From IMG/VR virus record IMGVR_UViG_2648501669_000026: 12,061 bases of DNA; one strand, 5' to 3'. This DNA comes from a virus (Duplodnaviria > Heunggongvirae > Uroviricota > Caudoviricetes). Below are positions 1,096 through 12,061 of the stretch, piece after piece (position 1 is the first letter of the stretch; each line of letters starts with the position of its first letter). Made by a program: the position numbers and the translations under genes. The notes below the pieces were generated by a model, which saw only the letters and a program-made list of their open reading frames with translations, was not told the origin of the DNA and ran no database searches.

Positions 1096-1167
1096 TCTCC
1101 TTCTTGCTTTGTGCGGATTGCCTGGGGAAAAATCATTCCCGAAAAGCTCAGGATACGGGAGAAAAAC

Positions 1168-1479
1168 ATGATACAGCGCATATTCATTCCACCAACTCCA
1201 GAACAACGCCGAGCCATACTCGCTGAGTATGGTTTTGACTACGAAGAACGCATCAGGGAAGACACGTGTAAAAAGATGACCACGCTTTCACGTTCCCGGC
1301 GTTGGGAACTGGAGGCGATTGGCGCTTTCCCTTCCCGCCACTCTTTGGGGCGTTGTTCGTGTACTTGGCTATTAAGCGATGTTTTATGGTGGTTGCGTAA
1401 CCCGCCAACTATTGCCGAGGCAAATAATCCGCATGAAAACGCCAAAAAGAAAAAGAGAGACGCTGATTTACTGGAGTAA
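1168..1479 (+). CDS. alpA: AlpA-family (Phage_AlpA-type) HTH transcriptional regulator with a ~35-aa N-terminal extension
   Basis: ATG 1168 is preceded by GGGAGA at 6-nt spacing. The C-terminal half (MTTLSRSRRWELEAIGAFPSRHSLGRCSCTWLLSDVLWWL) fits the AlpA signature LSRSxxxxxxxxGxFPxxxxLGxxxxxWxxxxVxxWL. A GTG at 1111 is a less likely alternative start. Confidence 0.7.
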   Translation: MIQRIFIPPTPEQRRAILAEYGFDYEERIREDTCKKMTTLSRSRRWELEAIGAFPSRHSLGRCSCTWLLSDVLWWLRNPPTIAEANNPHENAKKKKRDADLLE

Positions 1480-1484
1480 CATTT

Positions 1485-2360
1485 ATGGAAAACACAATCA
1501 CGGTATTAACACCCGTTTTTAAAAACTGCCCGGAAATGACCACGATTGCATCGTGGCCCCGTAGTTTTGTATATCAAAAGGGACAATCTGAAGTCTCTTT
1601 GGTTATTCGTCTGATTGATATCATTGCATCAAAATACATGCACAGACACGCCGAGGAATATTGCGATATTACAGGGTATTGCCTGCCGTTAGTGCATAAA
1701 ATCAGTGATGAAGAGATGCGGGATATTGCGGAAGGTTGCGATATTGCCATTACACGCATCCGGCAAAAAATCCGCGAAGCAGAAAATAAAGTGACTGCTC
1801 AGGAAAATAAAATCAGCGAATTGCGTAACGCTCAGTTACAGCCCACGTGTGCTGATAACCCTTATGGTGATCGGTATTCAGTAAAAGACGTTATCGAGCA
1901 TGAAATGCGTCTGCTTGAAAATGAGAAACGGAATTGCGAAAAGACACGCGCTGTCTGTGAGCAGGCTATACGCCTTATTGGTACGGGGAAAAACCTTTCT
2001 CATGATGGCGGTAATGCGTGGATTTTTGCCGCTTCGTTTGACGGACTGGAGCCGGAAACAAATCGCCGTATCAATATTTATAAAGAGATTATTTCGGCTG
2101 TCAGTGCGATCGTCACTTTACGCAATGAAGAAATTAAGCACATTCCTTATTCAGTAATGGCTAAATACAACCATTTACGGCAGGAATATATTAATGATGC
2201 ATTACGTACTCTGACGAAGCATTATTACAGCAACGGCAGTGAAACCATCCGCCATGCGATGACGCTACAGGAATACACCGGAATAAGTATGCCACGAATT
2301 GAACGGGATGCGGCGACCGCTTTGCTGTCTGTACATACCGAAAAGAAAGATATTGTTTAA
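1485..2360 (+). CDS. Hypothetical 291-aa protein with a central coiled-coil; capsid-scaffold-like only by position and size
   Basis: ATG 1485 lies 5 nt after the alpA stop, with GGAG 8 nt upstream. Heptad-like charged segment IRQKIREAENKVTAQENKISELRNAQLQ. No family recognised; it does not match my recollection of P2 GpO. Confidence 0.55.
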   Translation: MENTITVLTPVFKNCPEMTTIASWPRSFVYQKGQSEVSLVIRLIDIIASKYMHRHAEEYCDITGYCLPLVHKISDEEMRDIAEGCDIAITRIRQKIREAENKVTAQENKISELRNAQLQPTCADNPYGDRYSVKDVIEHEMRLLENEKRNCEKTRAVCEQAIRLIGTGKNLSHDGGNAWIFAASFDGLEPETNRRINIYKEIISAVSAIVTLRNEEIKHIPYSVMAKYNHLRQEYINDALRTLTKHYYSNGSETIRHAMTLQEYTGISMPRIERDAATALLSVHTEKKDIV

Positions 2361-2370
2361 GGGGAAATGT

Positions 2371-3423
2371 ATGTTTTTTAATATTAATGACCTGAAAGAT
2401 AAAGCCGGAAGCGTGCTTGAAAATATCAATATTTCATCTCCAGCGGTGAACGAAAATGAAACTGACATTAATAGCGCGCTTGCAGAAAAAGATCTTTACG
2501 CACGCATCAGTGCATACACACAAAAAAATCCGTTTGTGCATTTTATTTCGCCCTCTAACTGGCTTTCCGGGCAAATAAAATACCTGTCAGTTAATCCGCA
2601 TCAGTCCGCTATTAACCTTATTGGGGATGCGCGCTTATCCACCGGACGCGCAGAGGAAGGACGCTTTAGCCGTGCCATGGATATTAAAGGCTCTCCGATT
2701 GAATGCTATGAGATGGACTCATGCGAATATCTCGACTGGATTAACTTGGTTGTGATGGCCAATGTGGCGAATGACGACAAAAACCGCGATGCACTGCTGG
2801 GGATTTTGTGTGGCTATCTGACCAGCAAAATTTATCTGGACGATCTGCGGATTGGCTTTAACGGCAAGTCAGCGGCAACCTTCACCACACCGGACACCAA
2901 CCCGAACGGCGAGGATGTTGCGCCCGGCTGGCATGAAATTGCCAGGAAGGCAAGCGAAGGACGACAGATTATCAGCGATGCCATTACGCTGGGCGCAGGT
3001 GGTGATTTTCCGGGGGTAGATGCACTGGCGCAGCATCTGATTAAAACGAAAATTGCCGCACAGTGGCAGAACGATCCACGCCTTGTGGTGATGGTGGGAT
3101 CAGAACTTGCAGCTGCCGAACGTCTGCGTCTTTTCAGCACCGCAAACGGCGCAGGAGATACCGAAGCCGCCAGCGCATGGGGAAGCACCATTGCCGGGCA
3201 TTTTGCCTTTGTGCCACCGTTTATGCCGGGTAAACGTCTGGCTGTGACCACACTCCCGAACCTGCTGATTAACATCATTGAAGGCTCTTACCGCACAGAG
3301 TTCGATATGAACAAAGACACCAAACGCCTGAACATGCGGGCATGGCGTCATCAGGGCTACGGGCTGGCGGATGTGAATCTTTACGCGGCAGTGGATGAGG
3401 GCGCGATTACGCTTAATCCGTGA
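2371..3423 (+). CDS. Putative P2 GpN-family major capsid-like protein (tentative)
   Basis: ATG 2371 with AAGGGG 5-6 nt upstream; the ORF-track start at 2299 overlaps the preceding gene and is rejected. Collinear motifs GFNG, NP-x3-DVAPGW, GAGGDFPGVDAL and DPRLVVMVGSEL match P2 GpN as I recall it (GFNG, DVAVGW, GKGGDYASLDAL, DPDLVVIVGRQL). Size 350 aa versus 357 aa for GpN. Based on memory only. Confidence 0.55.
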   Translation: MFFNINDLKDKAGSVLENINISSPAVNENETDINSALAEKDLYARISAYTQKNPFVHFISPSNWLSGQIKYLSVNPHQSAINLIGDARLSTGRAEEGRFSRAMDIKGSPIECYEMDSCEYLDWINLVVMANVANDDKNRDALLGILCGYLTSKIYLDDLRIGFNGKSAATFTTPDTNPNGEDVAPGWHEIARKASEGRQIISDAITLGAGGDFPGVDALAQHLIKTKIAAQWQNDPRLVVMVGSELAAAERLRLFSTANGAGDTEAASAWGSTIAGHFAFVPPFMPGKRLAVTTLPNLLINIIEGSYRTEFDMNKDTKRLNMRAWRHQGYGLADVNLYAAVDEGAITLNP

Positions 3424-3604: not shown

Positions 3605-3633
3605 TTGCCCGCACCTCATAAAGCGGGTGCCGG

Positions 3634-3817
3634 GTTTGACAGCCTGATTGTTAGAGCGGGTAGCCGCTATATTTCCGTAATGCGGTTTTTTTGTGCCCGT
3701 AATTCCACCCTACCCCGTATTATGGCGGGGCGTAATGGGGGAGCCTTTGCGCTCGCTGGTTTCTCTAACGCCAGTCTGTCAACCCTGTTACGTCCCGCCA
3801 CCATGTTTGACAGCGTG
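3634..3817 (+). promoter_or_regulatory. Untranslated leader with a 13-bp repeat triplet, P4 seqA/seqB/seqC-like
   Basis: GTTTGACAGCCTG (3634..3646) and GTTTGACAGCGTG (3805..3817) are direct repeats, 12/13 identical. CAGTCTGTCAACC (3772..3784) is an imperfect inverted copy (11/13 pairing). A short hairpin plus T7 run sits at 3680..3700. No SD-supported ORF between 3465 and 3856. Confidence 0.3.
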
Positions 3818-4996: not shown

Positions 4997-5019
4997 CCCA
5001 CTGCAAAAGGTGCAGTGGG
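4997..5019 (+). terminator. Stable hairpin between the 101-aa ORF and the primase start; weak terminator or translational control element
   Basis: CCCACTGCA (4997..5005), loop AAAGG, TGCAGTGGG (5011..5019), a 9-bp perfect stem. No T-run downstream on +; the 3' arm abuts the primase SD GGAGGG (5020..5025). Confidence 0.3.
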
Positions 5020-5032
5020 GAGGGATTTATAT

Positions 5033-7702
5033 ATGAAACATAACACCAGAAAAGAGATTATTAACCGTCTTATTCGTGATTACAACTTTAAAGAAGAAAA
5101 TAATTATCTTCGCTATGGTGTTTGTCCGCAATGTGGAAAGAAGGAACTGTTTACCAGTCTTGAGAGGCCGTACATCGTACACTGTGGCCGCGAAAATAAA
5201 TGCGGTGCAGACCTGCTGACCAAAGAACTTTACCCGGATGTGTTTTCGTCATGGTCAGATCGCTATATCAGTACGAAAGACGATCCATACGCAGCGGCGG
5301 TAGCTTATCTTCAGGAGGCGCGCAATATTGCTGTGGAGCCACTGAAAGGGGCATTTACTCAGGAGCGATACCAGGACAAGGAAAGCGGCGAACAGGCCGC
5401 TACTGTGCGTTTTACGCTGGCTGACGGCGTGTGGTGGGAGCGCATCATAGACCGACCGGAACGCTTCGCTCGCAAGGCGAATTTTTCCGGCAGTTACAAG
5501 GGGCTGTGGTGGGCTTATCCGGGAGCGGATTTAAGCAAGGCCAAAGAAATCTGGATTTGTGAGGGTATCTTTGATGCCATCAGCCTTAACCAGAATGGCA
5601 TTGCGGCCGTTTCTGTCATGTCTGCCGTGAACTACCCTGATAAATCGCTGGAAGAACTGGCGAAGCTGTGCGGGGATAATCCACGCCCGGTTATCGTGTG
5701 GGCGCTGGATAACGGGCGTGCGGGTGAGCGTTACGCGAAAAAACATGCAGAACGCAGCGCCGAAGACGGCTGGAGAACGGCGGCAGCATTACCAGGTAAA
5801 AACAGCAATAAACGCGACTGGAATGATTTACACATCGCCGGAAAGCTGCGTGGCCATGATGTGAAAAGATATCGTTATTACGGTGATTTATTGTTGGCGA
5901 AATCGCCGAGAGATAAGGCACTAATAATGTTTTCCTTTCGTGAGCGAAAGGAGTTTTATTTTCCCTTTGATAACCGTATTTTCTGGTTCAAGCTGGATAT
6001 TGAGCGCCATATGAAGGCTGTTGAGCGTGTCATTAATGAGCGAAATGTTGACGAAAATGAAGCGCGCAAAATTGCACTTAAGGAATCCGGTGCAGTAAAA
6101 GAAATCGCAAACTGTAACCCAGTACCGCTTTATTACATTCGAAACAATGACACGGATGAAGCATGGTATTACTTCCGTGTTACGTTCCCGGATGGTGCGA
6201 CGGTGAAAAACACCTTTACATCAGGTCAATTAACATCCGCATCTGAATTTAAAAAACGCCTGTTGCATGTGGCAAAAGGTGGTATTTATACCGGAACGAC
6301 TGCGCACCTTGATGCATTAATAAAAAATGACCTTCCCGCAATAAAAAATGTTATCGGTCAGGATTTTATCGGATACAACAAAGAGATTGGCGCATGGCTG
6401 TTTAATGATGTCGCGGTTTGTAATGGTAAAACCTACGAAATCAATGAAGAGGATTATTTTGAAATTGATGGCATAAACGCAAAACCATTGAATAAAAAAC
6501 CAATATTGCAGATTAACTATAAAAAACCGGATGAATTTACAACGTCCTGGGTGGAAGATCTCTGGCTGGCGTTTGGTGAAAAGGGAATTATTACCCTGGC
6601 CTTCTGGCTGGGTTCGTTGTTCAGCGAACAAATCAGGCAGAAAAACGCATCTTACCCCTTTCTTGAGATTACCGGAGAGCCTGGAACGGGTAAAACAACG
6701 CTGATTGATTTTTGCTGGCGTTTGTGTGGCCGTGACAACTATGAAGGTGTTGATCCAACCAAAGGATCGGAATCAGGCTGGAAGCGAACTTTTGGACAGG
6801 TCGCCGGATTACCTGTTGTTCTGATTGAGGCAGACCGGGGGGACAATGCGCAAAAAAGAGGTGCGTTTGACTTTGATAACCTGAAAAGCCTCTATAACGG
6901 CGGTGGTATTGGGGTACGTGGTGTTAAAACTAATGATAACGCCACATATGACCCTGTTTTTAAAGGGGCTGTCGTGATTGCGCAGAATGCCACGGTAAAT
7001 GCCTCATCGGCAATTATCGAGCGTCTGGTACGTATATACACCGATAAAAAACGCCACTCACCAGATAGCCGACTGGCAGCAAAACGGCTGGAGCTTTACC
7101 CCGTTGAGCAGGTATCAGGTTTTATCCATCGGGCAGTAAGCCAGGAGCGGGCGATTATGGATTTGTTTATGGCACTCTCGGATCCTGAAACAGCCCGCCT
7201 TTACAGTTGCGAAAATATTCGCCATCAGCGTATTGCCAAAAATCACGCGCAACTAATTGCACTGGTCAGGGTGCTGAAATGCGTTATTGATATCCCGGAT
7301 GAATGGCTTGATGCCACATGTCTGGAACTGGAGCGAATGGCAGAGGAACAGGCTAAAGCGGTAATGGATGACTTGCCGGAAGTGATGGCGTTCTGGGAGG
7401 CGTTCGACTATCTGGACGGCATAACAGCATACGGCGTAAATCATTTTGGCAAGGGACGGCAGAATGAGTTTGCCGTCAGTATCCCGCAACTTGAGCAGGT
7501 TGCCGCCGTTCACCATGTGAAGATCCAAACCAATCCCGAAATGATAAAGCTTCTCAAGGCTGGCCGTTCTCGATCGCTGATTGGATACAAGCCCGTCCGT
7601 AGCGAGGTATCCAGACAGGCGAACGCCGGGAGGGGGATAGCCGAGGCCAGAGAGAAGGAGGTATTGAAATGCTGGATATTTAGTAACAAGGAGGGGGCTT
7701 AA
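5033..7702 (+). CDS. Bifunctional DNA primase/helicase (N-terminal zinc ribbon, TOPRIM primase, P-loop NTPase), P4 alpha-like replication protein
   Basis: ATG 5033 with GGAGGG 8 nt upstream; the ORF-track GTG at 5015 lies inside the hairpin. Zinc ribbon CPQCG...HCGRENKCG. TOPRIM motifs WICEGIFDAISL and VWALDNGRAGERYA. Walker A GEPGTGKTT and Walker B-like VVLIEAD. 889 aa. Confidence 0.9.
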   Translation: MKHNTRKEIINRLIRDYNFKEENNYLRYGVCPQCGKKELFTSLERPYIVHCGRENKCGADLLTKELYPDVFSSWSDRYISTKDDPYAAAVAYLQEARNIAVEPLKGAFTQERYQDKESGEQAATVRFTLADGVWWERIIDRPERFARKANFSGSYKGLWWAYPGADLSKAKEIWICEGIFDAISLNQNGIAAVSVMSAVNYPDKSLEELAKLCGDNPRPVIVWALDNGRAGERYAKKHAERSAEDGWRTAAALPGKNSNKRDWNDLHIAGKLRGHDVKRYRYYGDLLLAKSPRDKALIMFSFRERKEFYFPFDNRIFWFKLDIERHMKAVERVINERNVDENEARKIALKESGAVKEIANCNPVPLYYIRNNDTDEAWYYFRVTFPDGATVKNTFTSGQLTSASEFKKRLLHVAKGGIYTGTTAHLDALIKNDLPAIKNVIGQDFIGYNKEIGAWLFNDVAVCNGKTYEINEEDYFEIDGINAKPLNKKPILQINYKKPDEFTTSWVEDLWLAFGEKGIITLAFWLGSLFSEQIRQKNASYPFLEITGEPGTGKTTLIDFCWRLCGRDNYEGVDPTKGSESGWKRTFGQVAGLPVVLIEADRGDNAQKRGAFDFDNLKSLYNGGGIGVRGVKTNDNATYDPVFKGAVVIAQNATVNASSAIIERLVRIYTDKKRHSPDSRLAAKRLELYPVEQVSGFIHRAVSQERAIMDLFMALSDPETARLYSCENIRHQRIAKNHAQLIALVRVLKCVIDIPDEWLDATCLELERMAEEQAKAVMDDLPEVMAFWEAFDYLDGITAYGVNHFGKGRQNEFAVSIPQLEQVAAVHHVKIQTNPEMIKLLKAGRSRSLIGYKPVRSEVSRQANAGRGIAEAREKEVLKCWIFSNKEGA

Positions 7703-7704
7703 GT

Positions 7705-8706
7705 ATGTCGATCAGAAAGATGGATGATGGGCGATGGCTGCTCGATATCAGGCCACAAGGGGCGTACGGCAAACGGATACGTAAAATTTTTGTCAGGAAA
7801 GGGAGTGCAGAGGCCTTCGAACAATATATTTTACAGAATTTCCATAACAACCCATGGCTGGCTAAACCTGCTGATCGGCGGCGATTATCAGAGCTGCTTG
7901 ATACATGGTGGATGCTTGATGGCCGTAACCAGGCTTACGGCGATACCTACAGGATCCGGCTGGAGAAAGTGATTCGTGAAATGGGAGATCCGCGCGCCAG
8001 CCAGATGACGCAAAAATTTATGCTTGAGTATCGGTCAGAGAAATTACAGGCCGGCTTAATGCCATCCAGCATTAATCGTGACTTGTGCGTTCTGTCTACC
8101 ATGTTCACGGTGCTGATTGAAGCAGGGGTCTTTCACAACCCGAACCCTGTGCGCAGTATACGCAAGCTAAAAATTCAGAATACAGAGATGGCCTTTCTTT
8201 CTGATGATGAGATTGAACGGCTTCTTGAGCGACTGGAGGGGGATGCGCGTCGTGTTGCCATTCTGTGTCTTTCTACTGGTGCCCGATGGAGTGAAGCATC
8301 GGAACTACGTGGAGAGCATATCGTTGGCAACCGTGTGACGTTTTTTAACACCAAAAACGGAAAATCCCGCTCGGTTCCTGTGGCGGATTCGGTCGTGCCG
8401 CTGATTAAAACCCGTCGGACGGGGTTGTTGTATCAGGTTGATTATCTGGAGTTCCGGGAGATTCTTCAGGAGGTTAAGCCGGATTTGCCGAAGGGGCAGG
8501 CTACGCATGTTATGCGTCATACATTTGCCACACACTTTATGATGAATGGTGGGAATATCGTTACATTACAACGGATTCTTGGACATGCGACTATCCAGCA
8601 AACGATGACTTATGCGCATTTTTCTCCCGACTATCTGGCGGATGCCATGAGGTTTAACCCGATAGCTAACATGGCATTCACTGAACAAAAAGAGCCAGCA
8701 GAGTAA
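7705..8706 (+). CDS. int: Tyrosine recombinase / integrase, P2 Int-like
   Basis: 333 aa. Catalytic-domain motifs AILCLSTGARWSEA, HVMRHTFATHFM and LGHATIQQTMTYAHF; N-terminal DGRWLLDIRPQG...GKRIRK. Close to P2 Int in length and motifs as I recall it. ATG is 2 nt after the primase stop and shares the SD AAGGAGGGGG. Confidence 0.92.
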   Translation: MSIRKMDDGRWLLDIRPQGAYGKRIRKIFVRKGSAEAFEQYILQNFHNNPWLAKPADRRRLSELLDTWWMLDGRNQAYGDTYRIRLEKVIREMGDPRASQMTQKFMLEYRSEKLQAGLMPSSINRDLCVLSTMFTVLIEAGVFHNPNPVRSIRKLKIQNTEMAFLSDDEIERLLERLEGDARRVAILCLSTGARWSEASELRGEHIVGNRVTFFNTKNGKSRSVPVADSVVPLIKTRRTGLLYQVDYLEFREILQEVKPDLPKGQATHVMRHTFATHFMMNGGNIVTLQRILGHATIQQTMTYAHFSPDYLADAMRFNPIANMAFTEQKEPAE

Positions 8707-8761: not shown

Positions 8762-8953
8762 GTTGGCCAAAGCCAACGGTAACAGCAATGCAATGGTGGC
8801 CATATTGCAGCGGTGCCGCCATCAATTTTTTTGCTCTCCCTTCCTGATTATCAGGAAAGAGTCAAATAGTGGCGAGATACATTTTAATCACAGAGAGTTA
8901 ATGAGAGTGAGACATAGTGAGTGAGTTTAATTAACATTTTAAAGGGTTGCGCT

Positions 8954-9277
8954 AAAATCCGGGGGGGGGTGCGGAAACGGGTTACAAAGGTTACAAACAG
9001 AAAAATATATTATATATCAATATATTATAATACATTTAAAAGGTTACAAACGGGTTACAACAGGGTTACATGTAACCTTTATGTAGTGGTTACTGTTGGT
9101 TACAGGTTAAATTTATAATTAATTGATAATTAATCTGTTTTTTAGAGCTGTAACCTCGTGTAACCTTCTGTAACCTCAAAAAGGTTACAAGCAATTTCAT
9201 TTAAAATCATGATGTTAATGTGTGTTTTAAGGAGCTGTAACCTTTGTAACCCGTTTCCGCACCCCCTACCGGATTTT
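8954..9277. repeat. Iteron array bounded by a long inverted repeat; putative origin of replication of the element
   Basis: 13 exact heptamers. GGTTACA on + at 8980, 8989, 9042, 9053, 9064, 9098, 9183; TGTAACC at 9071, 9149, 9159, 9169, 9236, 9245. Three are phased at exactly 10 bp (9149/9159/9169). Palindrome GGTTACATGTAACC at 9064..9077. 30-bp perfect inverted repeat 8966..8995 / 9236..9265, extending to 42 bp (8954..8995 / 9236..9277) with 2 mismatches. AT-rich core 9001..9040 (2 G/C in 40 nt). Confidence 0.6.
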
Positions 9278-9415
9278 GAGGCAGAGCCCAAAAAACACTG
9301 GTAAGACCAGAAACATAAAATTAACACAACAAAACTGAATGAAATGACTGTTACCCCCCCGTGATGACGGGTAAAATCAGGTCAGGCAATCAGCGTTTAT
9401 TCATGAGGTGCCGGA

Positions 9416-9670
9416 GTGCGCAGACAGAAAGCGCGGTGTTTTTGCTGTGGTGAGCGCGCAGTGATTGAAAAGACCGTCTGGAAAGATGATCGGTTTGCTG
9501 ACGTGTATTACCGTTGCAAGCGTCTTGAGTGCGGACATACCTGGGTAATGAATCTGACCTACTCGCACACGCTGACCCCCAGCGGACTGGAGAACGGCGT
9601 GTTGAAGCTGTTGATCGAACGAATGCGCCCGGAGGAAAAACAAATGGCGCTGGAACTACTACAGGCCTGA
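9416..9670 (+). CDS. Ogr/Delta-family zinc-finger transcriptional activator-like protein
   Basis: GTG 9416 with GAGGTG 5 nt upstream. C-x2-C, 22 residues, C-x4-C (CFCCGERA...CKRLEC), the same cysteine spacing as P2 Ogr as I recall it. 84 aa. Confidence 0.7.
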   Translation: MRRQKARCFCCGERAVIEKTVWKDDRFADVYYRCKRLECGHTWVMNLTYSHTLTPSGLENGVLKLLIERMRPEEKQMALELLQA

Positions 9671-9687
9671 GGATACCAGCCAAAAGA

Positions 9688-9715
9688 AAACCCGCAGCTT
9701 TTACACGGCGGGTTT
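9688..9715. terminator. Hairpin downstream of the ogr-like gene, bidirectional-looking
   Basis: AAACCCGC (9688..9695), 12-nt loop, GCGGGTTT (9708..9715). The better U-tract is on the - strand (TTTTCTTTTG from 9681..9690). Confidence 0.4.
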
Positions 9716-10206
9716 GTGATGTTCATGACTGCAGATAGGGTGCCGTTCCGGCCTTTACCCTGGCAACCGATTGACGGGGAAGTTGACTTCCCCGTCGCGG
9801 TTCCTTACTGTGTAGACTTACATTGTAAGAATGCCGCAATTTCCGTTCCTGCAAACCTGAATCGCAACTCACAAGGTGATGTGTGGAGGATCCAGATTAT
9901 CGCTACTGCGGTTAAACACAGTAGCAGGGTTTTTAACGGAATTTGCGTCATAGCGCTTGCTCCTTTGGTGGAGAGGCGCTAACCTTCTACTTGTCAAGGT
10001 ACGAAGTGTTAGGGCCTCGGGTTAACATTAAAGTTGACTCGGGGCCTTTCCACATCTGGCCTTCGGGTATTCCCTCCGACCATCAGCCGAAAGGCACCCG
10101 CAGCGATTCTAGCCTGGTTGCCATACCCGCATCAATCACCCGCCACATCGCTTTATCGCTCGCAAATCAGCAACCTGACGCTACTTTACGTCGCTCTGTC
10201 CGGCAT

Positions 10207-10618
10207 TTTACGTCACCTCATCGCACCGCGTTTTATTCGTCCCTTCTGACCGTTCTGCCTCTCCCTGTTGTGAAGTTTTTTTCAGTTTCATTTTGTTCGC
10301 CGTATGCCGTCAGGGCGCGTCACGTCTGGATTTTCGCGAAATGCTGCCGGGCGTGAAATTCTGCCACCGGGCCAAACAGCCTCACGTAAAGTATGAAAAA
10401 GCCTTAAATATCATGAAAGTAGTCACGCGCAGCACAAAAAAAGAACTGAAAACCGGGAAGAAAAATTGCAAAAAATTTCACTGAATGAAATTTTGCTTTT
10501 GCACGAATCCCCAGAACTGACGCACCCTGCCAGCTATTTTTTCACACCAGAAAACTGAAAAAGTGTTTCGACACGAAACCCGCGGGTTGGAGGGGGTAGC
10601 GCGGTTTACGTCACCTCA
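10207..10618. repeat. 14-bp exact direct repeat TTTACGTCACCTCA (two copies) with several shorter related copies
   Basis: Exact copies at 10207..10220 and 10605..10618, 398 bp apart. Related TTTACG(T/C)(C/G) cores at 10185..10193, 10622..10632, 10636..10644 and 10740..10748; inverted copy at 10383..10390. Confidence 0.6.
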
Positions 10619-10690
10619 CGTTTTACGTCACGCCGTTTACGCGGCGTATGCATACAGCGCCAGAACGGCACACAGAAAGCTGATTCGGGG

Positions 10691-10726
10691 AGAAAATACG
10701 AAAACGCACGGCCTGAACCGTGCGTT
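10691..10726 (-). terminator. Rho-independent terminator for the 169-aa - strand gene
   Basis: 9-bp stem AACGCACGG (10703..10711) / CCGTGCGTT (10718..10726), 6-nt loop, then a U-rich tract on the - strand (complement of 10691..10702), 42 nt past the stop. Confidence 0.45.
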
Positions 10727-10767
10727 AATCAGGGCGCGTTTTACGCGGTTTTATGCGGGGCGTTTAT

Positions 10768-11277
10768 TCAGACCAGACCGTAGTCATTTGCGGTCGATTC
10801 ATCGTTGCTGGCAAAGCTGGCAGCCGCCTGAGTCATGGCTGATTTTAGCGGCGATGCTTCTGCTTCAAGCAATGTCCTGAGCTGGCTTAGTGGAATGCGC
10901 TGGCTGAACTCTGCCAGCCCTTCGCTAAAGCTAAATTGCTTTGGTGACTCATCACCACACGCAATCCATGCGAAGTCCTCAGCATCACCACGCTGCTTTA
11001 ACTCAAAGAAGCACGGGAAGTCAAACCTCTGGCAGAAGCGTTTAGCTCCGTCGATGGTGGAGAAGTAAGCCGCTTCCAGTCCGCCCTGTTCGTCGGGCAT
11101 GGCGACCACATACCTTACAGGCGCGCGCTCTTCCAGTTCCTGTGCAATTCCGGCGCAGAACGTCGGCGTATAGCCGCTGTTCGCAATCCTGTTCATCGCT
11201 CCCCGCCAGCCGAATGGGTTGTTTTCTGGTGTGCCGGCTCTGGTGTCGGTGCCTGTGAATATAGTTTTATTGCTCAT
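10768..11277 (-). CDS. Hypothetical 169-aa protein, monocistronic, divergent from hpt
   Basis: ATG at 11277..11275 with AGGA about 10 nt upstream. The only long ORF in an otherwise ORF-poor region; protein-like composition. No family recognised. It is not Gcd, which is the upstream neighbour of hpt in E. coli K-12. Confidence 0.6.
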   Translation of the reverse strand: MSNKTIFTGTDTRAGTPENNPFGWRGAMNRIANSGYTPTFCAGIAQELEERAPVRYVVAMPDEQGGLEAAYFSTIDGAKRFCQRFDFPCFFELKQRGDAEDFAWIACGDESPKQFSFSEGLAEFSQRIPLSQLRTLLEAEASPLKSAMTQAAASFASNDESTANDYGLV

Positions 11278-11524
11278 CTTTGTTTAATCCTGTTGATTGG
11301 TTGTCGACGTTGCGACCTGGCTGAATCATAACAGTGAGTAGAGCGGGCGCAAGTTGGTGTGAGGTGACACATAAGGTACAATTTGCGGCCTTAAAGTGTT
11401 CTCATGTGTTCTGGTGTTGTCTGCCTGCGATATTGTTTTGTGTATCAATTGGTGTATCAATATCGATATTTGCAGAGAATTAAAACGAAATTAAATTCAC
11501 TGAAATCAATGTGATAGGTTATTG

Positions 11525-12061
11525 ATGAAACATTATGTAGAAGTAATGATCCCCGAAGCGGAGATTAAAGCGCGTATCGCCGAACTGGGTCGTCAGATTA
11601 CTGAGCGTTACAAAGACAGCGGCAGCGATATGGTGCTGGTGGGTCTGCTGCGTGGCTCATTTATGTTTATGGCGGACCTGTGCCGTGAAGTTCAGGTATC
11701 TCATGAAGTCGACTTTATGACCGCCTCCAGCTACGGTAGCGGCATGTCCACCACCCGTGATGTGAAAATCCTCAAAGATCTGGATGAAGATATCCGTGGC
11801 AAGGACGTGCTGATTGTTGAAGATATCATCGACTCGGGGAATACACTGTCGAAAGTGCGTGAGATCTTAAGCCTGCGCGAACCGAAGTCGCTGGCGATTT
11901 GTACGCTGCTGGATAAACCGTCCCGTCGTGAAGTGAACGTCCCGGTAGAATTTATCGGTTTCTCGATCCCGGATGAGTTTGTGGTGGGTTACGGCATTGA
12001 TTACGCACAGCGTTACCGTCATCTGCCGTATATCGGCAAAGTGATTCTGCTGGACGAGTAA
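11525..12061 (+). CDS. hpt: Hypoxanthine phosphoribosyltransferase
   Basis: The protein [52 protein letters not shown]...[17 protein letters not shown]...GKVILLDE is near-identical to E. coli Hpt as I recall it, including the PRTase motif [16 protein letters not shown] 11525; the ORF-track start at 11522 is TTG. Stop at the window end. Confidence 0.95.

Follow-up and report, generated by a model that had tools for sequence, protein, structure and literature searches.

The 12,061-nt stretch IMGVR_UViG_2648501669_000026 (the window) belongs to an Escherichia prophage, a P4-like satellite integrated in the 5' end of hpt, of which it makes up the right-hand 12 kb. The satellite is carried by nine of 5426 complete Escherichia coli genomes, and in its nearest complete-genome relative (96.5% identity) the layout between integrase and hpt is unchanged. 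The kilobase at positions 9716-10767 was flagged in an initial annotation as poor in open reading frames (ORFs) and as carrying a family of short repeats. From left to right it holds a minus-strand locus of hok/sok type, a spacer, a noncoding unit with a near-invariant core, and the terminator of a 169-aa gene (Table 1). We consider it rather probable that the kilobase consists of a hok/sok module and a helper-matched cos packaging site, both shared with one lineage of P2-like E. coli prophages of HP1-type gene order. The segment would thereby be assigned to known classes of element, an addiction module and a packaging site matched to a helper phage.

The minus strand at 9688-10135 is a type I toxin-antitoxin locus of the known hok/sok class. 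The initial annotation had reported no ORF supported by a Shine-Dalgarno sequence, which is incorrect, as a 48-aa minus-strand frame has AAGGAG 8 nt before its ATG. The product belongs to the Hok/Gef family (Pfam PF01848, HOK_GEF; 35.4 bits, cut-off 22, E = 8.3e-9) and is annotated as a Hok/Gef family protein by RefSeq in the closest relative. Ten other small ORFs of the segment gave zero Pfam matches and are not conserved in the aligned relatives. Transcription is predicted to start at about 10099, where a match to Rfam RF01794 also begins (9946-10099, minus strand; 42.7 bits, E = 8.8e-8); this match covers the full length of the model. The 412-nt RNA folds with a minimum free energy (MFE) of -170.6 kcal/mol (z = -8.0; none of 100 shuffles equally stable). 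Its 5' end (10085-10099) pairs with 9738-9752 over 15 bp in the MFE and centroid structures (inverted repeat I17), a pairing which resembles the fold-back inhibition element of hok mRNAs. The terminator hairpin closes the predicted fold and faces the end of the convergent plus-strand ogr/delta gene (9416-9670). A structured RNA transcribed leftwards had been suggested earlier; this holds for 9688-10099, but not in the form of a long noncoding RNA, since the transcript is the coding hok mRNA.

The locus shares with hok/sok of plasmid R1 and with the chromosomal hok loci of E. coli a Hok/Gef peptide of about 50 aa, an end-paired mRNA of about 400 nt, a leader with a below-threshold match to the Rfam hok/sok model and a rho-independent terminator. 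It differs in its setting, a satellite and a helper phage beside a proposed cos site rather than a plasmid. Some features speak against the assignment: the Rfam score lies under the curated gathering threshold of 59, and the mok-like frame and Sok are placed only tentatively, the Sok promoter and the mok frame not being clearly identifiable. The 42-aa mok-like frame has no family match. The candidate Sok promoter (TTGCTC-17-TAACCT, 9958-9986) was recognized by eye together with a 15-bp hairpin at about 10017-10049; the promoter scan made no call at 9958-9986, and the candidate Sok region is conserved in divergent hok loci. By analogy with the hok/sok family, the full-length hok mRNA would be silent through fold-back, a plus-strand antisense Sok RNA would block translation of the processed mRNA, and cells losing the element would be killed by Hok, a 48-aa membrane toxin.

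P2-like E. coli prophages also contain the stretch from hok to the hairpin at 10703-10726, one of them being that of NZ_CP086626 between pheA and raiA. This prophage (L005; NZ_CP086626.1, 1416534-1451854), regarded here as the putative helper, is a 35-kb member of the P2 family (Peduoviridae) with an HP1-like gene order; it encodes ParM, a ParR-like protein and com/mom, and its lineage occurs in 48 of the 5426 genomes. In a blastn comparison of the whole window with this prophage the hok region matched at 87%, the ogr/delta gene at 84% (nucleotide level) and 10462-10756 at 78% identity. The remaining matches were weak ones to the integrase and capsid genes, a 36-nt isrK-like stretch and a 50-nt stretch at 1062-1110. 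Beyond coding sequence, similarity was limited to the hok region, the shared block and the isrK-like stretch. At the protein level the satellite ogr/delta product is 89% identical to the phage Ogr. The shared block was found in 50 of the 5426 genomes, 48 with the phage tail gene and 2 satellite-only. The phage lineage is present in 7 of the 9 satellite genomes versus 41 of the 5417 others (Fisher 1e-13; 6e-8 with likely clones collapsed). Satellite and prophage are a candidate E. coli helper-satellite pair outside the classical P2/P4 pair, with a helper from an uncultured P2-family lineage.

Conservation within the noncoding unit was taken from an alignment of 26 distinct copies. In these the core at 10576-10641 varies only at positions 10581, 10621, 10632 and 10639; Hok, which adjoins it, drops to 55% amino-acid identity in many of the same loci. 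The unit occurs once per element. It is kept in L021, a phage of the helper lineage with unrelated genes, such as a 212-aa ORF, in place of hok (L021 2563-3400). The unit therefore does not depend on hok, which sits beside it in a variable slot for cargo; L021 shows that a cargo hotspot adjoins the proposed cos.

The place of the unit in the prophage corresponds to that of cos in the Haemophilus phage HP1 (Peduoviridae). The core block starts 86 bp after the last tail gene, which is an orthologue of HP1 orf35 (38% identity, E = 4e-132); in the HP1 GenBank record, where orf35 is likewise the last tail gene, cos is annotated 192 bp beyond it and 250 bp before attP/int. On the side of the portal gene, which is the canonical position of the P2 cos (PMC9122126), the prophage has 65 bp of noncoding space, as against 827 bp, its largest gap, around the unit. 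isrK and C4 RNAs occupy the one other gap of more than 200 bp, which leaves the gap with the unit as the only large noncoding one of the prophage that has no other account.

The region from about 10276 to 10700 is most likely a packaging (cos) site of uncharacterised type, which the helper terminase would recognise. A staggered cut would fall at the short palindrome and G-rich tract of the core, the three direct TTTACG repeats beside the cut would be docking sites for the small terminase subunit, and the A/T-rich conserved islands left of the core may be accessory bending sites. Possession of the helper's site would allow the helper terminase to cut and package satellite DNA, with hok in the variable cargo position beside cos.

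This arrangement has parallels in known packaging sites. In P2 and P4 cos is shared sequence, with variable cargo or hotspots adjoining it (PMC9122126). As there, the noncoding block is essentially the only homology at DNA level between the satellite and its P2-family helper; GCGCG comes after a G-rich core, variable cargo adjoins the site and the satellite has an ogr/delta homologue. In contrast to P2/P4, the sequence is unrelated to the 19-nt cohesive end, three TTTACG direct repeats abut the core, the helper has the site near attP, beyond its tail genes, an HP1-like position and not one by the portal gene, and the ends are predicted from sequence. With HP1 the site has in common its position after the orf35-type last tail gene and a terminator and before attP/int, its strand polarity, with the pyrimidine-rich strand read from the tail gene, and ACGTAAA-type motifs nearby; it differs in that no statistically significant nucleotide alignment exists and that hok here, and com/mom in some phages, stand between site and attP. 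Layout alone likens the site to cosN-cosB of phage lambda, in that a putative cleavage region would be adjoined by A/T-rich, possibly bent DNA and a few repeated sites for the small terminase; terminase family and sequence are unrelated. If the reading as cos is true, the rule that cos is shared sequence adjoined by a cargo hotspot would extend to a second cos type.

Several results weigh against a packaging site. No characterised cos resembles the unit significantly in nucleotide sequence, and a blastn search of 10100-10780 against deposited phage genomes gave no match. The P2 19-mer cohesive end was not found at the site even with up to 6 mismatches, a comparison with the P2/P4 cos junction returned chance short words only, and alignment to the HP1 cos junction was no better than that of shuffles. 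A loose cos-end pattern (G-rich/GCGCG) gave one match in the window and one in the prophage versus 0.2 expected, but it was devised after the site had been seen. The spacing motif TTTTTTCAG, which P2 and HP1 have some 26 nt from the end, was dropped on account of its absence from 186, P4, phiCTX and RSA1. Scans of viral and metagenome contigs revealed none that ended at the core, all 22 + 8 matches being internal. The left repeat pair at 10185-10220 is found in the satellite only and is unaccounted for by the cos model. No deposited phage has a large terminase that reaches 60% identity to that of the helper prophage, and therefore no characterised close relative is at hand to supply known ends.

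Another kind of protein-binding array, such as an operator of the cargo slot, a ParM/ParR centromere or sites for a shared regulator, is an unlikely substitute for the packaging site, though less so than the alternatives that follow. Direct repeats and a palindrome like that at 10472-10494 are typical of operators and centromeres, ParM and ParR-like genes are present in the prophage, and cleavage at the core is something we infer. However, the Pfam search places no parMR genes in the satellite, and a ParR centromere, on the model of parC in R1, usually has more than three repeats and a place upstream of parM. The core is flanked by no gene needing regulation, with hok under its own promoter on one side and a terminator on the other, and it has no motif in common with the phage late promoter region. 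An array of this kind would also leave both phage and satellite without any candidate cos. The idea of a late promoter or Ogr site was likewise abandoned, as no words were shared with the phage P/O promoter region.

The TTTACG repeats lie on both sides of the A/T-rich segment 10390-10560, as they might in a replication origin or in an element like crr of P4, bound by the primase-helicase and located in P4 between the primase gene and attP. The iterons of ori and crr, the targets of the P4 alpha primase, are likewise short noncoding repeats between primase operon and att, but their counterpart here is a GGTTACA array at 8950-9280 and not the flagged segment. That array is far more origin-like and occupies the same place, after the primase and second recombinase (int2) genes, in a sibling satellite. 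Moreover, the TTTACG block is absent from sibling satellites whose primases are 89-95% identical, and present in phages with gpA-type endonuclease replication that lack such a primase. An origin at the TTTACG repeats is accordingly improbable.

Still slightly less credit is given to an unannotated small RNA or decayed protein genes in the right-hand part, the latter having been put forward in the initial annotation. The long unannotated stretch between two terminators and its strand-skewed composition would suit such a reading, but Rfam yields no family beyond hok in the segment, and folding of the repeat blocks is no better than that of shuffles on either strand (z -0.4 to +0.3), the core itself showing no excess RNA structure (z about -0.4). 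The conserved core has no promoter-terminator pair. No ORF has a family match and indels break every frame between the satellite and phage copies; the strong conservation of the right-hand part at the DNA level likewise speaks against decayed genes.

A further proposal of the initial annotation, that the repeats serve the integrase as arm-type sites of attR and mark the end of the island, is refuted, although a direct repeat family does lie within about 1.3 kb of the right end of the island. Island DNA continues through the 169-aa gene (10768-11277, minus strand), and in alignments to island-free E. coli chromosomes homology resumes only at 11514-11525, which places the boundary at hpt. The repeats stand more than 750 bp and one gene away from the boundary at 11514-11548, no TTTACG copy occurs in the 180 bp adjoining attL, and they are conserved in phages with other integration sites and integrases. 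The repeat that does adjoin both attL and attR is GTGTATCAAT, present twice at 11440-11461, about 70-110 bp from the attR core, and likewise next to attR in a sibling island without TTTACG repeats; judged by its placement it is a better candidate than TTTACG for arm-type sites. The attL junction of the relative carries AACATACTGTAGAAGTAATG, corresponding to hpt codons 2-8 of K-12-type strains, and this 20-bp att core recurs with two changes at 11529-11548 of the window (attR). From the duplication of the att core in hpt codons it follows that the element integrated into the start of hpt and supplied a new promoter and start codon. The insertion alters residue 4 of hpt from Thr to Tyr (11525-11548; L001 1-172). 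A false lead is thereby removed, with the island edge at hpt and the repeats not integrase sites.

The repeat family itself, the base skew and the hairpins were all confirmed. The 14-mer TTTACGTCACCTCA has exactly two copies, at 10207-10220 and 10605-10618, with a spacing of 398 bp. Allowing up to 3 mismatches, it matches 5 times in the window versus 0.96 expected, a number reached by none of 200 shuffles. Shorter related copies exist: TTTACGYS has 9 matches in the window, 7 of them inside 10185-10747 (binomial 1.6e-8, post hoc). The copies are at 10185, 10207, 10383 (minus strand), 10605, 10622, 10636 and 10740, with TTTATGCG in addition at 10750. The plus strand is pyrimidine-rich, with a GC skew of -0.24 and an AT skew of -0.29 at 10051-10350. 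The terminator scan scored each of the two bracketing hairpins as a minus-strand terminator (stems 9708-9692 and 10726-10703, the latter followed by TTCGTATTTT); they are ordinary terminators, for hok and for the 169-aa gene. A hairpin homologous to 10703-10726 is conserved in the phage copies, where it terminates the tail operon. The spacer at 10136-10275 is found in satellite copies (L039; 91-93% identity) and does not align with the phage copies; its RNA fold is ordinary (z = +0.3).

The hpt site is also occupied by a sibling satellite, L032, whose primase is 90% identical and whose origin is of the same type, but which lacks delta, hok and the TTTACG block. It has instead a noncoding block with 81% identity to one in P88-like phages, placed there at the canonical P2 cos position, with the partition genes on one side and the portal gene on the other. 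Within this block are four copies of TGCACAA and GGTGACGGGGGAACAGCAC, a 19-mer that agrees with the P2 cohesive end in 14 positions. A mapping of cos for P88 was not found in the literature. A layout of short repeats with a G-rich core, matched to one helper lineage, is thus seen twice, independently. The siblings at hpt share primase, origin and icd/C4 and have a different right arm (L032 11290-15400), which carries the P88-type cos-like block, a distant capsid-like gene and an ogr/delta gene that differs from the present one and encodes 60 aa. Near the attR of the sibling are back-to-back minus-strand ORFs of 114 and 82 aa, resembling a type II toxin-antitoxin pair by layout only.

It is possible, although we would propose it only tentatively, that these satellites switch helpers by cassette swap and that the extra TTTACG pair is an auxiliary terminase-loading site favouring packaging of the satellite. 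The constant backbone would consist of the primase, the GGTTACA origin, the C4 RNA and the hpt-specific integrase. Some members would have acquired cos, ogr and hok from the HP1-type E. coli prophage lineage, next to a P2-family capsid gene of their own, and sibling members a P88-type cos with a different ogr/delta gene; the extra pair, confined to satellites, lies 398 bp from the core. Confirmation of the proposed cos would also show an exchange of cos modules between sibling satellites.

Table 1. Features of the flagged kilobase and neighbouring genes of the window
Feature	Position	Strand	Basis or remark
hok mRNA terminator, stem 9708-9692 then GTTTTCTTTT	9682..9715	-	terminator scan
hok mRNA, 412 nt	9688..10099	-	fold, Rfam
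hok toxin gene, 48 aa	9805..9951	-	Pfam HOK_GEF, RefSeq
Possible mok-like overlapping frame, 42 aa, TTG start, no clear Shine-Dalgarno sequence	9869..9997	-	position only; uncertain
Putative Sok antisense RNA region	9958..10055	+	by eye; candidate
hok promoter, TTGATG-18 nt-TAGAAT	10106..10135	-	promoter scan; transcript start ~10099
Spacer confined to satellites, with left repeat pair TTTACGTCGC (10185) and TTTACGTCACCTCA (10207-10220)	10136..10275		
Noncoding unit common to satellite and helper-type P2-like prophages	~10276..10700		proposed cos region
Conserved island TTTTTTCAGTTT	10279-10290		
Conserved island CACGTAAAG	10382-10390		inverted repeat copy
Conserved palindrome AAAATTTCA-N5-TGAAATTTT	10472-10494		
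Conserved island CAGAAAACTGAAAAA	10548-10562		
Near-invariant core, ~60 bp	10576..10641		
Palindrome ACCCGCGGGT	10578-10587		in core
G-rich tract GGGTTGGAGGGGGTAGCGCG, including GGAGGGGGTAGCGCGG	10584-10603		in core; proposed cleavage region
Direct repeat TTTACGTCACCTCA	10605-10618		proposed terminase-binding site
Direct repeat TTTACGTCAC	10622-10631		proposed terminase-binding site
Direct repeat TTTACGCG	10636-10643		proposed terminase-binding site
Terminator of 169-aa gene	10690..10726	-	terminator scan
Weak repeat copies TTTACGCG (10740) and TTTATGCG (10750)	10733..10767		just past stop of 169-aa gene
AlpA-type excisionase/regulator	1111-1479		
P2-family major capsid homologue	2299-3423	+	
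C4/CI-type antisense RNA	3718-3805	+	72.8 bits
Toprim primase	5015-7702		
Second tyrosine recombinase	7705-8706	+	
ogr/delta zinc-finger gene	9416-9670	+	
169-aa orphan gene	10768-11277	-	

Among the neighbouring genes, the capsid homologue matches Pfam Phage_cap_P2 with 150 bits and shows 44.6% identity to the capsid protein of the putative helper. To our knowledge P4 has no capsid gene, and for this reason such a gene is unusual in a P4-like element. A 36-nt isrK-like stretch (3611-3646) is 89% identical between satellite and putative helper, whose early region holds isrK and C4 RNAs (L005 16257-16454). These findings suggest that the immunity RNAs of the two elements may be related.

The second tyrosine recombinase gene stands directly 3' of the primase gene, in addition to the integrase at the left end of the island. 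It occurs in sibling satellites as two alleles, about 96% and about 55% identical, and is 55% identical to the integrase of a helper-lineage prophage. The origin-like array that follows it contains 13 of the 14 GGTTACA/TGTAACC copies of the window (1.1 expected), in both orientations and with A/T-rich cores, and is framed by a 42-nt inverted repeat (8954-8995 / 9236-9277). Among satellites the array is co-inherited with the gene of the primase, the putative initiator; the equivalent structure of the sibling carries GCGGTTACA repeats. The product of the 169-aa gene gave zero matches in Pfam, PHROGs and PADLOC; the gene lies between the proposed cos and attR, which is the position of the defence and cargo hotspot in P4.

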